A DNA stretch of 64,000 nt from a virus. Below are positions 25,604-60,351 of the stretch, piece by piece. The translations under genes were made by a program, and so were the position numbers. Position 1 is the stretch's first letter, and each line of letters opens with the position of its first letter. The notes under the pieces are model-generated. The model did not search any database, had not been told where the DNA came from, and saw only the letters and a list, made by a program, of their open reading frames with translations. Where the stretch lies: the IMG/VR virus record IMGVR_UViG_3300042889_001061, positions 32,001 to 96,000 of that record, one strand, 5' to 3'.

Positions 25604-25690
25604 GGATAGTTGGTCGAGAGGCTTATGACACCAATCTCCGAAGTTGGCAAAGACGCGAGTCTTTCAGGGGTTCAAATCCCCTACTATCCT
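25604..25690 (+). tRNA. Class II (long variable arm, Ser-like body) tRNA with anticodon CCG (Arg)
   Basis: Acceptor GGATAGT/ACTATCC, D arm GTC/GAC, anticodon arm CCAAT-CTCCGAA-GTTGG, V arm AAAGAC-GCGA-GTCTTT, T arm AGGGG-TTCAAAT-CCCCT; no encoded CCA. Confidence 0.8.
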
Positions 25691-25703
25691 CTAAGAACAT
25701 TTT

Positions 25704-25949
25704 ATGAAAACAATTATTTTATTAACAACAATCTTACTATCGGGGTGTAGTTCACTGAACACAGTATTGTATAACAGTGCCAATGCTTGTTTAGAAGCAC
25801 AGAAATCAATTAGTAAAGATTCTGCGATGACAGAAATTGCAAGATTAAATGCAATACAAGAAATAGCAAAAACTGCCAACGATGAAACTAAAAGGACATT
25901 GTCGTCTTTAATAAATAATAAACGACAAACTGATATTATATGTAAATAA
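25704..25949 (+). CDS. Lipoprotein
   Basis: Lipobox LSGC. Confidence 0.65.
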   Translation: MKTIILLTTILLSGCSSLNTVLYNSANACLEAQKSISKDSAMTEIARLNAIQEIAKTANDETKRTLSSLINNKRQTDIICK

Positions 25950-25956
25950 AAGTTAA

Positions 25957-26370
25957 GACTGTATGAAGTAGACAGAAAAGGATTCAAGACGCGGGGGCAG
26001 TGCCCGCCAGGTCCACCAAAAGTATTGTGAACAGAAACAAGTAATGAACCCGAGCTGTGTACAGGCAGAGGTGTAGTGAACGAAAGTAAGTGGCACAGGC
26101 TAGTACAACGGAAGAGGTGTTAAACCCGTAGATTAAGTTCCTACGCTCTCGCTCAACCGATGCCAGTAGATCGTACCTACTATACTTTTGATGGGCCTGA
26201 CACAGGATCGATTGGGTCACAAGTATTGAAATGGACAGTCCGGCAATGTAGAAGCCGTTAGGATTGGGGATTTCCCGGTCGAAGAAGCAAAACAAAGTAA
26301 CCGCAAACGACTCACAGTTCGCATTAGCTGCCTAAACTCAGCTTAGGGTAAGACATACCTCGTAACAGAA
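25957..26370 (+). ncRNA. ssrA: Circularly permuted (two-piece) tmRNA
   Basis: Acceptor piece T-arm GCGGG-GGCAGTG-CCCGC plus CAGGTCC-A-CCA (to 26018) precedes 5' piece GGGCCTG (26193), giving G3:U70; tag (A)ANDSQFALAA* at 26303-26335; outer ends approximate. Confidence 0.92.
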
Positions 26371-26375
26371 AATCA

Positions 26376-26402
26376 GAAACCCGCTTCGGCGGGTTTTCTT
26401 TT
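26376..26402 (+). terminator. Rho-independent terminator after tmRNA
   Basis: gaaacccgc-ttcg-gcgggtttt plus T tract. Confidence 0.85.
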
Positions 26403-47371: not shown

Positions 47372-47449
47372 GCAACGGTGGCAGAGCGGCCCAATGCAAC
47401 GGATTGCAAATCCGTAAAACCGGGGGTTCAAATCCCTCCCGTTGCTCCA
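47372..47449 (+). tRNA. tRNA-Cys(GCA)
   Basis: Acceptor GCAACGG/CCGTTGC, anticodon arm ACGGA-TTGCAAA-TCCGT, U73, encoded CCA; own sigma70 promoter. Confidence 0.92.
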
Positions 47450-47809: not shown

Positions 47810-49201
47810 TTAGACAGGGCTGTGTCTTGCTAAATTAGCAAGAGGTTGCTCTAACATTATATCAGGGCAATGTCTTGCTAAGATGTCATGTACTTCTGGC
47901 AAGACCTTTCGCCAGTTGGTGCCCCTGATTTTATCTAGTTTGTCCATTACTGTTACAAATTCTTGATATTTTTTTGAATTTTCTCGGTCTATATATTTTT
48001 CTAATAATTTAATAATTGCTTTATACCACTTGGTGCGATTTTCTGTATGATGCATTAAATTTTTATAATGTTCGATGATTTCTTCCTTGGCCGATCTTGG
48101 TAAAGATCGCAGATCTAACCAAGCTGGACCTTCTAAAAATCTAAATTCTGCAGGGACGTCTAGTTCTTCGGCAACTTCAACTATTCGTTCTATAGAGTAT
48201 ATAGACGCGAGTCCTATACAACATGAAAGATAACGTATACTCATACCATTTTCTTTAATAGTTTTTATGTTCTTAACAATATTATTATAATTTCCCGGAA
48301 AACGAATAAGATTGTATCTTTCCTCCACGTCGTCGAGACTAACACAAAAGTCAATATTCTTAAAGAATTTAAATTTTTCAATAATCTTATTATTGATTAC
48401 AGTTAAATTTGTATCGTATCGCAGTGTAATATTTTTTGCAAAATCCCTTGCTATTAAACGATTTAATATTTCAGTCATAGCAGGAGAAATCAACGGCTCG
48501 CCACCGGAAAAATAAATGTATCTCAAGTCGGGTGCAATCTTATCAAAACGTTCCCACCAAATATCACTTTCCCACCATTTCGAATAATCTAAAATCTCTC
48601 GACCTTTGGTATCTGTGGTCATCCTATAATCTTTGTCACCCCACTCAGTACCCGCCGGCGTAACTTGGACATCGCCCCAAAGTTTACTCCAATCTTCATA
48701 CCAAAGACTGCTGTATTCAGGACTGCACATTATACATTTTTGATTGCATAAATTGCTCAATCGAAGGCCTAAATTTACAACCTTGGCAGTTGAAGTACCA
48801 TCGGGTAATGTATATTGATCGGCCTGATCCCAGCGGACATATTCTGGAATCCGTTTAGTCATATGCCTATTGACTCGTTGTCTTTTACTCTTGCCCCATT
48901 TTTTAACATCTTCGTCGCCTGGCACATCAAGGCCTTTAGTGCTATGCTCAGCATCATAACAATTACGACATCTCGTTACTTTAATATTTTCTTTAAGTTG
49001 TAATCGATGATTTTTATGGGTTACACTATTAATAGCCTCTTCTATGGAATGGGTCATGACATTCATTACGTTGCCATTCTCATCATGCGCCATTCCATAA
49101 TCTTTATTATAATTTGCCAGGCAACATATTTTATAGTCACCGAGTGTGTTGATTTCTATTTGGCTCCACAACTCGCCACAAAAACTTTCTAAATTAAACA
49201 T
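47810..49201 (-). CDS. Radical SAM protein with twitch/SPASM-like domain
   Basis: N-terminal C...ICC...CRNC; CNQKCIMC; FSGGEPL. Confidence 0.88.
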   Translation of the reverse strand: MFNLESFCGELWSQIEINTLGDYKICCLANYNKDYGMAHDENGNVMNVMTHSIEEAINSVTHKNHRLQLKENIKVTRCRNCYDAEHSTKGLDVPGDEDVKKWGKSKRQRVNRHMTKRIPEYVRWDQADQYTLPDGTSTAKVVNLGLRLSNLCNQKCIMCSPEYSSLWYEDWSKLWGDVQVTPAGTEWGDKDYRMTTDTKGREILDYSKWWESDIWWERFDKIAPDLRYIYFSGGEPLISPAMTEILNRLIARDFAKNITLRYDTNLTVINNKIIEKFKFFKNIDFCVSLDDVEERYNLIRFPGNYNNIVKNIKTIKENGMSIRYLSCCIGLASIYSIERIVEVAEELDVPAEFRFLEGPAWLDLRSLPRSAKEEIIEHYKNLMHHTENRTKWYKAIIKLLEKYIDRENSKKYQEFVTVMDKLDKIRGTNWRKVLPEVHDILARHCPDIMLEQPLANLARHSPV

Positions 49202-53087: not shown

Positions 53088-53288
53088 ATGAACTTACGAA
53101 TTCAAGAACTTTTAAAACAAGCTAGGGTCACTGATAACTGGAACAAGGCAGACTGGTACAGTATGAGTCCAGAGATGATTGAAAAATTCGCCCAGTTGAT
53201 TGTCAAGGAATGTGCCGAGGTAGCTGATAAAGCAGAACCGTATCAGACCAGTGATTTGATTTTGAAACATTTCGGAGTTGAACTATGA
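53088..53288 (+). CDS. HFGVE-family paralog 5
   Basis: MNLRIQELLKQA...EKFAQLIVKEC...HFGVEL. Confidence 0.75.
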   Translation: MNLRIQELLKQARVTDNWNKADWYSMSPEMIEKFAQLIVKECAEVADKAEPYQTSDLILKHFGVEL

Positions 53289-54448
53289 AAAATTTACTTT
53301 GTTATCCACGTAAAATTCACTTTGGTATAATTGCATTAGTTTCTACTTGTGCAGTTTCGCAAACTGTACTACCTATGAAGGATGGGCAATTCTTCATGCC
53401 AGACGAATGGTTGATGAGCGTGGGGCAACCTTATCATTATAAAATTCCAGCATCTAATAATGGAGCAGTTATATCTAGTAGAGCACCCATCAATTCTGAA
53501 AAATCAGTAATTGAAAGAGCTAATTCTTATCTAGACAAATCTGCATCTAAAGTTATTTTACTAGGTGATGGTAAGAAAATTGTTCATGTAAATTTTAAAT
53601 CACCTGCTAATGAATCAAAGTTGTATCTAAGTGCTAGTATGGATAAAACTATTACAGCATTGAGTGCTGGAGTTGCAATCTGTGACGGTAAAATTTCGTT
53701 AACTACTAAAGCACAAGATCTAATTCCTAGCCTAACGGGCACCGACTTGGGTCGAAGCACATTAGAAGATAACTTGAAAATGGCATCGGGCACAGTAACA
53801 GCTATGGACGATGGCCAAAGTGAAACTCCTGCAGAATTGGCTAGCAGAATGTCGGGTAAAACTAATTTTATGGACATACTATCAGGAAGGCTAGGAAAAG
53901 CTCGTACAACAATATTTGGTAAAAAGACTCAGCCCGGCGAAACATTTGATTATAAATCACAAGATCCATTGCTAGTAGGTATGATGATTTCTGCCGCATA
54001 CGGACAAGAAGGAAAGAATTTAAGGGCATGGCAAGAGAAGAACTTTTGGCCAAAGGTTCGTGTAAATGATAGAATCATACAAGGCGAAGACCAATCGGGA
54101 TATGCACAGTCGGATGGTAACACTCGTTTAACTATTGCAGATTGGACTCGGTTGGCAAATTTTGTTATAGACAGTCGTAAAGAAACTGGATGCTATGGTG
54201 ATTTTGTACGTTCGGCAACCAAGACACAAATTAAAACAGATAATCGATTTGCTAAAATGTACAATGGTTATGGATACTTTATATGGTCAGATAATTCTCA
54301 ACTACCAGGTAGCTTCTCATCTTTGGGTTACGGTGGTCAAAGCATTACTTGGAATACAAAGAATGACAAATATGTTATTGTATTCTCCAATCAAGGAGAT
54401 TTAACTGGTGTACATAAAATTGCAGATCAATGGTTCAACGCAAAATGA
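53285..54448 (+). CDS. Secreted serine hydrolase, beta-lactamase class C-like fold
   Basis: Signal-like N-terminus; SMDK (SxxK), PGETFDYKS, YGYFIW, GYGGQ. Confidence 0.8.
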   Translation: MKNLLCYPRKIHFGIIALVSTCAVSQTVLPMKDGQFFMPDEWLMSVGQPYHYKIPASNNGAVISSRAPINSEKSVIERANSYLDKSASKVILLGDGKKIVHVNFKSPANESKLYLSASMDKTITALSAGVAICDGKISLTTKAQDLIPSLTGTDLGRSTLEDNLKMASGTVTAMDDGQSETPAELASRMSGKTNFMDILSGRLGKARTTIFGKKTQPGETFDYKSQDPLLVGMMISAAYGQEGKNLRAWQEKNFWPKVRVNDRIIQGEDQSGYAQSDGNTRLTIADWTRLANFVIDSRKETGCYGDFVRSATKTQIKTDNRFAKMYNGYGYFIWSDNSQLPGSFSSLGYGGQSITWNTKNDKYVIVFSNQGDLTGVHKIADQWFNAK

Positions 54449-59618: not shown

Positions 59619-59909
59619 ATGGGTTTAAGATACGATACATTGGGTGAGATGATTACTTTGAACGAACAAGAAAAACGTGAAGTTCGTATGTATGGCGTCA
59701 CTGAAAAGGGTATGCGTGAAGCAGTTGAAAGTTCAATTACTTTCAAACTTTCTGGACCTATGATGATGGCCGCGGGCATTCTCAGCGATGCACAAGAAAT
59801 GATTAACACAGAATACGGCGAAGTTGACAGTATGCGAGCAGAAGATGCTCGTCAAGCGATTAATCGTGCTAAGTGGATCATGTTTGAATACATGGACAAA
59901 CCACGTTAA
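59619..59909 (+). CDS. Early hypothetical protein
   Basis: Promoter cassette plus GGAG SD. Confidence 0.65.
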   Translation: MGLRYDTLGEMITLNEQEKREVRMYGVTEKGMREAVESSITFKLSGPMMMAAGILSDAQEMINTEYGEVDSMRAEDARQAINRAKWIMFEYMDKPR

Positions 59910-59944
59910 TTGATACAAATTGTTTTTGGTGTTATAATATACAC

Positions 59945-60130
59945 ATAGTAAGAAAATAAGGTTGCTGAAGTAAAGAGCACGTAAGTCCGCTTGAGGAACA
60001 GCGGTAAAGCCCCAGAGCACTGGGGCACTTAGGTGGGGCAACGGATAATTACGGTTCGTTCAAAAAGCAAGCCACGCGAAAGCAAAAAGGCAAGCAGGAA
60101 CGATTAAATGGGCCTAGCCCAGCCAATCTA
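59945..60130 (+). ncRNA. Putative structured non-coding RNA, family unrecognised
   Basis: Own promoter at 59910; no credible ORF; several nested helices including a GAAA tetraloop. Confidence 0.6.
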
Positions 60131-60147
60131 ATTTAACAGGAGTTGAA

Positions 60148-60342
60148 ATGAAAGATAAAGAAAGAGCAAAAAAACTTGCCAAGGCAAGAGAGTTGATTGC
60201 ACGAGCCGAGGACTTGATTTCAGAAGCCTTGCCGGCCACTGAGTACAGTCAAGACATGTGTTTTTCACTGTATAAAAATTATGTATCATTGGAAAGCGAT
60301 GTTGCATTTTATAAACACGGCGAAGTTGATCCCGTCCGTTAA
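60148..60342 (+). CDS. Early hypothetical protein
   Basis: AGGAG SD. Confidence 0.6.
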   Translation: MKDKERAKKLAKARELIARAEDLISEALPATEYSQDMCFSLYKNYVSLESDVAFYKHGEVDPVR

Positions 60343-60351
60343 GGAACTGTC

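Follow-up and report, generated by a model that had tools for sequence, protein, structure and literature searches.

To our knowledge, small structured RNAs encoded beside phage tRNA genes have been known since the RNAC and RNAD species of bacteriophage T4 were recognised, and we know of none with an assigned function. RNAC and RNAD (species 1 and 2) are small, stable RNAs to which no role has been assigned; they belong to the T4 tRNA cluster (PMC3014915, PMC9697503), and both are reported to be late RNAs (PMC9697503). Two other families, GOLLD and ROOL, are highly structured RNAs of phages and prophages, often located beside tRNA genes and of uncatalogued function (PMC5737381; 10.1101/2024.12.08.627333). 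In phage HK022, the put element, an RNA of about 70 nt with two stem-loops located just past PL, acts independently of any protein (PMC9378689). A survey of IMG/VR yielded 8,495 candidate structured RNAs (Fremin et al. 2023; PMC10690425) and may already include the family described here. We report on a short RNA encoded immediately downstream of a phage early promoter, which is close to certainly a representative of a real structured RNA family uncatalogued in Rfam 15.

The window, by which we mean the whole stretch of 64,000 nucleotides that was analysed, corresponds to bases 32001-96000 of a 111-kb IMG/VR virus record. Since CheckV rates this record as 32% complete, the source is a jumbo phage; relatives reach 524 kb. 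Its ribonucleotide reductase is nearest to the enzymes of Xanthomonas, Ralstonia and Stenotrophomonas phages. Elsewhere in the window are found tRNA-Arg(CCG) and tRNA-Cys genes (at 25604-25691 and 47372-47449), a permuted tmRNA gene of the two-piece type at 25905-26380 (Rfam tmRNA_permuted, 99.6 bits; alpha_tmRNA, 64.5 bits; ARAGORN made no tmRNA call), a radical-SAM/SPASM protein encoded on the minus strand at 47810-49201 and a beta-lactamase-fold protein encoded at 53285-54448.

Nine sigma70-type promoters matching at least 10/12 consensus positions lie on the + strand between 59.3 and 63.4 kb. The near-consensus promoters of this region head small ORFs; the one at 59910-59938 leads instead into about 200 nt without a credible ORF, the folded non-coding tract behind it measuring about 185 nt. 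The G+C content is 0.50-0.53 across 59950-60100, against 0.33-0.45 in the flanking DNA, and the + strand shows a strong purine excess. The sole + strand frame in the tract, a 24-codon frame opening with GTG, was rejected as a gene: it is not preceded by a Shine-Dalgarno (SD) sequence and lies inside the part that most homologues miss. Thus, the layout first noticed from the letters of the DNA, a strong promoter followed by a GC-richer folding tract and not by an SD sequence and an ORF, was borne out. Transcription from this promoter probably starts near 59945. The same succession of promoter and RNA recurs in most homologues, and early expression is deduced from these consensus promoters directly upstream. 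The features of the locus are as follows.

59910..60343, + strand: mobile cassette of 434 bp comprising the promoter, the RNA and a 64-codon ORF (ORF64), flanked by CGTTAA direct repeats
59910..59938, + strand: sigma70-type early promoter (11/12), with -35 box TTGATA at 59910-15, a 17-nt spacer and an extended -10 box TG-TATAAT ending at 59938
59958..60043, + strand: conserved 86-nt core (model R1), 85-86 nt long in more than 40 variants, supported by fold z score and covariation
59961-59966 (GUUGCU) with 60037-60042 (GGCAAC), + strand: helix P1; CU/GG becomes UC/GG in L100, and a C-G pair becomes U-A in L215
59967..59977, + strand: J1/2, an 11-nt purine-rich internal loop, GAAG-N-R-AA-S-AG, facing the single G 60036; nearly invariant
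59978-85 with 60028-35, + strand: helix P2, enclosing a three-way junction
59987-93 with 59999-60004, + strand: helix P3, with loop AGGAA at 59994-98
60005-08, + strand: J3/4, variable
60009-15 with 60020-26, + strand: helix P4, with loop AGCA at 60016-19
60053..60124, + strand: optional 3' domain with a second junction, carried by about 12 of about 44 variants, the window among them
60057-60102, + strand: long arm with A-rich internal loops, capped by a GAAA tetraloop at 60078-81
60103-09, + strand: invariant linker AUUAAAU
60109-60121, + strand: small hairpin
60125..60147, + strand: AU-rich tail and ribosome binding site (RBS), AGGAG at 60138-42; a weak 6-bp hairpin may hold the SD sequence in its loop
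60148..60342, + strand: ORF64, co-transcribed with the RNA in the window copy and inside the 434-bp cassette; no family match

The core thus consists of P1, a purine-rich internal loop and P2, leading into a three-way junction from which P3 and P4 emerge. Almost no variation affects J1/2, the P3 loop or G60036, in contrast to the stems, J3/4 and the P4 loop, which vary. According to the column counts, the AGGAA of the P3 loop is constant except for one A-to-G change. The P4 loop can be AGGAA, AGCA, AGAA or AGAAA, the last three being found in about a third of the variants, including the window. In the core alignment (A2), all variants with an additional U in the P3 stem have a P4 loop one base shorter (9/9; columns 34 and 60), and three other variants with the short P4 loop are devoid of the extra U. 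This association could reflect either lineage or a compensation of length between the two hairpins. A resemblance to boxA was also considered: the reverse complement of J1/2 and the start of P2 (59967-59979, minus strand) reads UGCUCUUUAC, nine bases of which are identical to the rrn/lambda boxA core. It was set aside as probably a coincidence, since it lies on the untranscribed strand and since columns 14 and 18 vary.

The optional 3' domain is about 70-85 nt long. It is probably closed locally by the pairing of GGU (60053-55) with GCC (60122-24), a helix that shows no variation among members. Both the arm and the small hairpin change sequence while keeping their pairing. The base stem of the long arm exists as CGUUC/GAACG, GUUUC/GAAAC, ACGCC/GGCGU, ACUCC/GGAGU (in L215) and GUUCU/AGAAC, and the small hairpin as UGGGC/GCCCA, UGUGC/GCACA and GAGAU/AUCUC. 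In L166, the small hairpin is all that is kept of the domain.

The core folds better than expected by chance: 59958-60043 has a minimum free energy (MFE) of -32.6 kcal/mol (z = -3.0, equalled by 2/200 shuffles), and the core of L131 has a z score of -3.9 (0/200 shuffles). For the 3' domain and for the whole 203-nt tract, z scores against shuffles are -2.3 and -2.5, respectively. Covariation points in the same direction, with the proviso that identity among members always exceeds about 85%, so that few independent covariation events stand behind the structure. Among 37 distinct core sequences, 99.5% of the pair cells are standard, four pairs are doubly changed (columns 23/77, 25/75, 30/47 and 56/66) and none of 500 shuffles matches the score; shifting the partner strands abolishes the pairing. 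L215 contributes further double changes, the C-G to U-A replacement in P1 and one from A-U to G-C in P2. In the 3' domain, pairing amounts to 97% and six of the 21 pairs are doubly changed, among just seven distinct sequences. The RNA is read from the + strand, as shown by the G-U pairs of P1, P2, P3 and P4, which the complementary strand would turn into A-C mismatches. An absence of covariation in homologues, which the initial annotation had named as an outcome that would tell against an RNA, was looked for, and compensatory changes are present in core and 3' domain alike. Four of the five helices it had drawn are recovered by both MFE folding and RNAalifold, and covary. The fifth, an end pairing of 5' GGUUGCUG with 3' CAGCCAAUC, is not supported as the helix that closes the structure: the 5' strand pairs with GGCAAC (60037-60042) in all members, and most members have no 3' partner, so that this cannot be the closing helix of the family. 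In the long forms, the GGUUGCUG/CAGCCAAUC pairing is possible as an alternative.

The comparison with Rfam by Infernal, which had been suggested at the outset, matched no Rfam 15 family. This holds both for a scan of the window at gathering thresholds and for searches with E up to 10 on segments of 501, 196 and 121 nt, in which the best score was 15 bits against thresholds of 39-60; scores at this noise level were obtained with Flavivirus SLIV (15 bits), CRISPR-DR47 (14 bits) and PinT (12 bits). Mimicry of a CRISPR repeat was rejected because the weak match lies partly in the 5' leader, which is variable, and missing in the copies embedded among tRNA genes. The sarcin-ricin loop, 5S rRNA, T-box, k-turn and anticodon loop were considered as models for mimicry and discarded, their register or partner strands being a misfit and Rfam remaining silent. 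Membership among the bacterial and phage Y RNAs (YrlA), which would call for a Ro60 gene in the genome and a tRNA-like domain in the RNA, finds no support: five RNA-bearing records gave no Ro60 (TROVE) match, and ARAGORN found no tRNA-like element at the site of the RNA. A covariance model of the 86-nt core (R1) finds one copy in the phage record, with 101.5 bits (E 2e-25). Applied to the T4 tRNA region, it detects nothing at the rnaC or rnaD coordinates and, with filters off, its best match in the put-bearing early region of HK022 (22.0-30.5 kb) is one of 12 bits (E 0.13) within a gene. Searches by blastn and megablast, covering E. coli genomes as well as 50,697 phage records, were negative. 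When 185,579 bacterial genomes were scanned twice with patterns, zero and then 23 chance matches were obtained, none of which fits the model.

Homologues were gathered by scanning viral contigs, and in one case metagenome contigs, for exact patterns, an approach to which divergent members are by construction invisible. About 44 distinct variants were obtained, mostly from lake metagenomes and in a few cases from assemblies labelled marine. Two other matches were dismissed as due to chance, that in L185 because it falls in coding sequence, and a 'mini' match in L107 (E 0.008) because an ORF exceeding 1000 codons covers it on the opposite strand. As judged from the sequences collected, the family appears so far to be known only from a clade of uncultured, mostly freshwater jumbo phages. 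Even there its distribution is patchy: the RNA is single-copy in the records that carry it, 40 of 50 related records do not have it, and neither does a 524-kb relative that is 100% complete.

A direct view of how the RNA is gained or lost comes from L003 and L007, in which the neighbouring protein is 99% identical. Both miss exactly 59910-60343, CGTTAA being joined directly to G-TAACTGTCATGG. In the window, the CGTTAA repeats at 59904-59909 and 60337-60342 are in each case the last sense codon (CGT) and the stop codon (TAA) of an ORF. Such a precise absence from near-identical phages marks the RNA as an accessory, mobile cassette. The original suspicion of an unrecognised structured RNA occupying an early promoter cassette is thereby confirmed, with no Rfam match, with helices that covary and with a cassette present or absent between 99%-identical neighbours.

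The surroundings of the RNA differ from copy to copy. Most variants have a consensus promoter, then the core and, right after it, the next promoter, with or without a hairpin in between. In L143, a terminator-like, AU-rich hairpin ending in U5 stands between the core and a new promoter. An AU-rich hairpin of the form GUUGUUG...CAACAAC with a U tail recurs ahead of cassette promoters (upstream of the RNA promoter in L214; at L143:5820-5848) and is likely to be an inter-cassette terminator, which a scan for consensus terminators misses because it has few G-C pairs. About 16 variants, including the window, proceed from the RNA to an SD sequence and an ORF without an intervening promoter, at least six unrelated families being represented among these ORFs. 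The RNA is also placed in tRNA arrays, in five independent arrangements, none of them in the window, where it lies in a region of early ORF cassettes. In L100 and L162 the order is tRNA-Trp, promoter, core and tRNA-Cys; in L166 a promoter in the middle of the array precedes the core, the small hairpin and tRNA-Glu; in L169 promoter and long form are followed by tRNA-Met; and in L122 tRNA-Asp is followed after 3 nt by a long-form RNA and tRNA-Asn, with no ORF. A unit made of a host-type promoter and the RNA moves between early-gene cassettes and tRNA arrays. In L140, L153 and L158, the long-form RNA keeps the RBS and first codons (ATGAAAGA; 60131-60150 in the window), fused to two ORFs, MKD.. 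and MKE... Since the RNA travels together with the RBS and first codons, the recombination end-points seem to be in the promoter and at the start codon.

What the RNA does can be approached through what it keeps invariant and through the company it keeps. The reading that we prefer, with a confidence falling somewhat short of even, is that of an autonomous, early, trans-acting RNA that offers its invariant AGGAA loop and its purine loop to a protein. According to this scheme, the host sigma70 RNA polymerase would transcribe the RNA early, and host RNases would free it from longer transcripts by cutting in the AU-rich single-stranded flanks or at adjoining tRNAs; this mode of release is proposed because AU-rich single strands or tRNAs flank the RNA. 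It would then adopt a compact body, of which the optional domain would be a probable stabilising peripheral element, and the AGGAA pentaloop of P3, together with J1/2, would bind a host or phage protein in trans. The RNA could in this way be a protein-binding decoy or regulator serving host takeover or counter-defence, the decoy mechanism itself being a guess. A compact tertiary fold presenting loops to a partner is suggested by the invariant loops, the variable junction and the optional GNRA-capped arm. A protein seems the most likely partner given that GGA is displayed in a hairpin loop and that complementary targets are missing, base-pairing targets of J1/2 or of the P3 loop within the window being at chance level. 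Patchy distribution in the early region fits a part in host takeover or counter-defence, and the fact that downstream partners differ between copies argues for an RNA gene in its own right and not for a regulator of one ORF. The role of 5' UTR for ORF 60148 in the window would then be a by-product of cassette shuffling. Several facts run against this interpretation: most copies do not have their own terminator, so that a purely cis, co-transcriptional role may be envisaged; same-strand genes lie downstream of every copy; and no gene for an RNA-binding protein is linked to the RNA.

The arrangement in the window had also suggested, from the beginning, a cis-regulatory leader of the ORF at 60148, that is, a gene-specific 5' leader (a riboswitch or protein-controlled operator) governing its translation or transcription. 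In the window and about 15 other variants, the RNA does run straight into an SD sequence and an ORF with no promoter between, and a small hairpin loop can hold the SD sequence. However, this hairpin is no better than shuffled sequences (z = -0.5), no expression platform or alternative pairing of the SD sequence is conserved, 3' sequences vary by copy, and J3/4, the usual ligand site of aptamers built on a three-way junction, is variable. Above all, the ORFs found downstream are unrelated (and the proteins encoded nearby match neither Pfam nor PHROG), and other copies precede a second promoter, a terminator-like hairpin or tRNA genes. Control of the ORF at 60148, as considered in the initial annotation, is not supported as the purpose of the RNA, and we regard a gene-specific leader as distinctly improbable. 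A cis role that would be indifferent to the identity of the genes downstream is a little easier to accept, while still unlikely: like put, the nascent RNA might bind the RNA polymerase that is transcribing it and protect it from pausing and from Rho-dependent or intrinsic termination over untranslated tRNA arrays or the chain of early cassettes downstream. The precedent of HK022, the strong promoter directly upstream in nearly all contexts (including the tRNA arrays of L100, L162, L166 and L169), the same-strand genes that always follow and the usual lack of a terminator are all consistent with such an element. Yet the RNA does not resemble the HK022 early region, the cassettes downstream have strong promoters of their own, and few terminator-like sites are found downstream in the window. 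Moreover, a tRNA and not a promoter precedes the RNA in L122, a terminator-like hairpin is directly 3' to it in L143, and near-identical phages dispense with it.

The remaining explanations place the activity in the RNA itself, or deny that there is one. Taken broadly, the 86-nt core might be a new class of compact RNA fold, carried as a mobile early gene and working as a self-processing ribozyme or as a sponge or decoy that neutralises a component of host defence, be it a protein or a signalling nucleotide, with the 3' domain as tertiary stabiliser; we hold this to be unlikely too, in about the same measure as an element resembling put. Its narrower versions fare less well. The architecture recalls that of small ribozymes, in that two helices separated by a conserved internal loop lead to a junction of several helices where one terminal loop is conserved, and a peripheral domain bearing a GNRA loop is optional. 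The unpaired nucleotides are nearly invariant, and the RNA is placed between tRNAs and ahead of mRNAs, where a new small self-cleaving or otherwise catalytic RNA could process the transcripts that contain it. But a search with E up to 10 matched no Rfam model of the known self-cleaving ribozyme classes, a cleavage site cannot be deduced, and host enzymes already process the transcripts of tRNA arrays, which leaves a ribozyme with little probability. Smaller still is the chance that we accord to a trans-acting aptamer that would sequester a small molecule, for instance a host immune signalling nucleotide, and would need no expression platform. Its apparently compact fold, its conserved unpaired nucleotides, the lack of a linked protein and an early, patchy occurrence similar to that of counter-defence genes would suit it; the idea is purely inferential, however, the junction is variable and the RNA is unlike the nucleotide-binding aptamers of Rfam. 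Finally, the tract is located at cassette junctions and its non-template strand is purine-rich, as might be expected of an element acting at the DNA level in recombination or replication, and its folding might be fortuitous. Compensatory changes hold six helices, G-U pairs fix the strand, and the 86-nt length and the loops are conserved in more than 40 variants across contexts, which makes it barely conceivable that no functional RNA is involved.

Whichever activity is eventually ascribed to it, the RNA would be convenient to study. The family is short, has clear boundaries and sharply conserved loops, and exists in natural minimal (86 nt) and extended forms. Because its promoter is an ordinary sigma70-type one, the RNA could be expressed and tested in laboratory bacteria, and its presence or absence between near-identical phages amounts to a natural knockout. 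It behaves like the accessory early genes of host takeover or counter-defence, while consisting of RNA. The promoter cassettes known for early protein genes also carry RNA genes, moving them among early regions, 5' UTRs and tRNA arrays.

This last property brings to mind the PeSL elements that Arbiol et al. reportedly described in T4-type phages in 2010, mobile promoter cassettes in which repeated early promoters are said to flank small genes and to allow their modular shuffling. The RNA cassette, gained or lost between CGTTAA repeats and recombining within promoters and start codons, resembles them, except that its cargo is a structured RNA and not a protein gene. CsrB and RsmZ, which act as sponges, show GGA in short hairpin loops, and a spacing of about 22 nt between loops would suit a CsrA dimer. 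Our RNA also has GGA in a short hairpin loop, and two of its loops are about 22 nt apart; it differs in having a single invariant GGA loop (that of P3, the second being AGCA in the window), no multiple repeats and no terminator. A two-site, dimer-binding model is disfavoured by the P4 loop, the sequence of which is not conserved, and a CsrA gene was looked for in vain in five phage records that carry the RNA. GOLLD and ROOL, at 500-800 nt, form multimeric cages, whereas this RNA measures 86-180 nt and matches neither in Rfam. HK022 put is likewise a compact multi-helix RNA located right behind a phage early promoter, whatever genes follow (PMC9378689). It has, however, about 70 nt folded into two stem-loops that form a V shape with a short triplex, in contrast to the 86-nt stacked helix and three-way junction found here; the two are not homologous, and terminator read-through is not clearly needed for our RNA. 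With T4 RNAC and RNAD, it shares the status of a small structured phage RNA; in the five tRNA-array contexts, all of them outside the window, it is also located beside tRNA genes, co-oriented with them and presumably matured by the tRNA-processing machinery. No similarity of sequence or structure accompanies this likeness: RNAC ends in a tRNA-like T arm, which our RNA does not have, and, unlike the T4 species, the RNA usually possesses its own sigma70-type promoter, can also serve as a 5' UTR and is located, in the window, in a region of early-gene cassettes. The RNA is a member of none of the families compared here, and its nearest analogues by context are T4 RNAC and RNAD.
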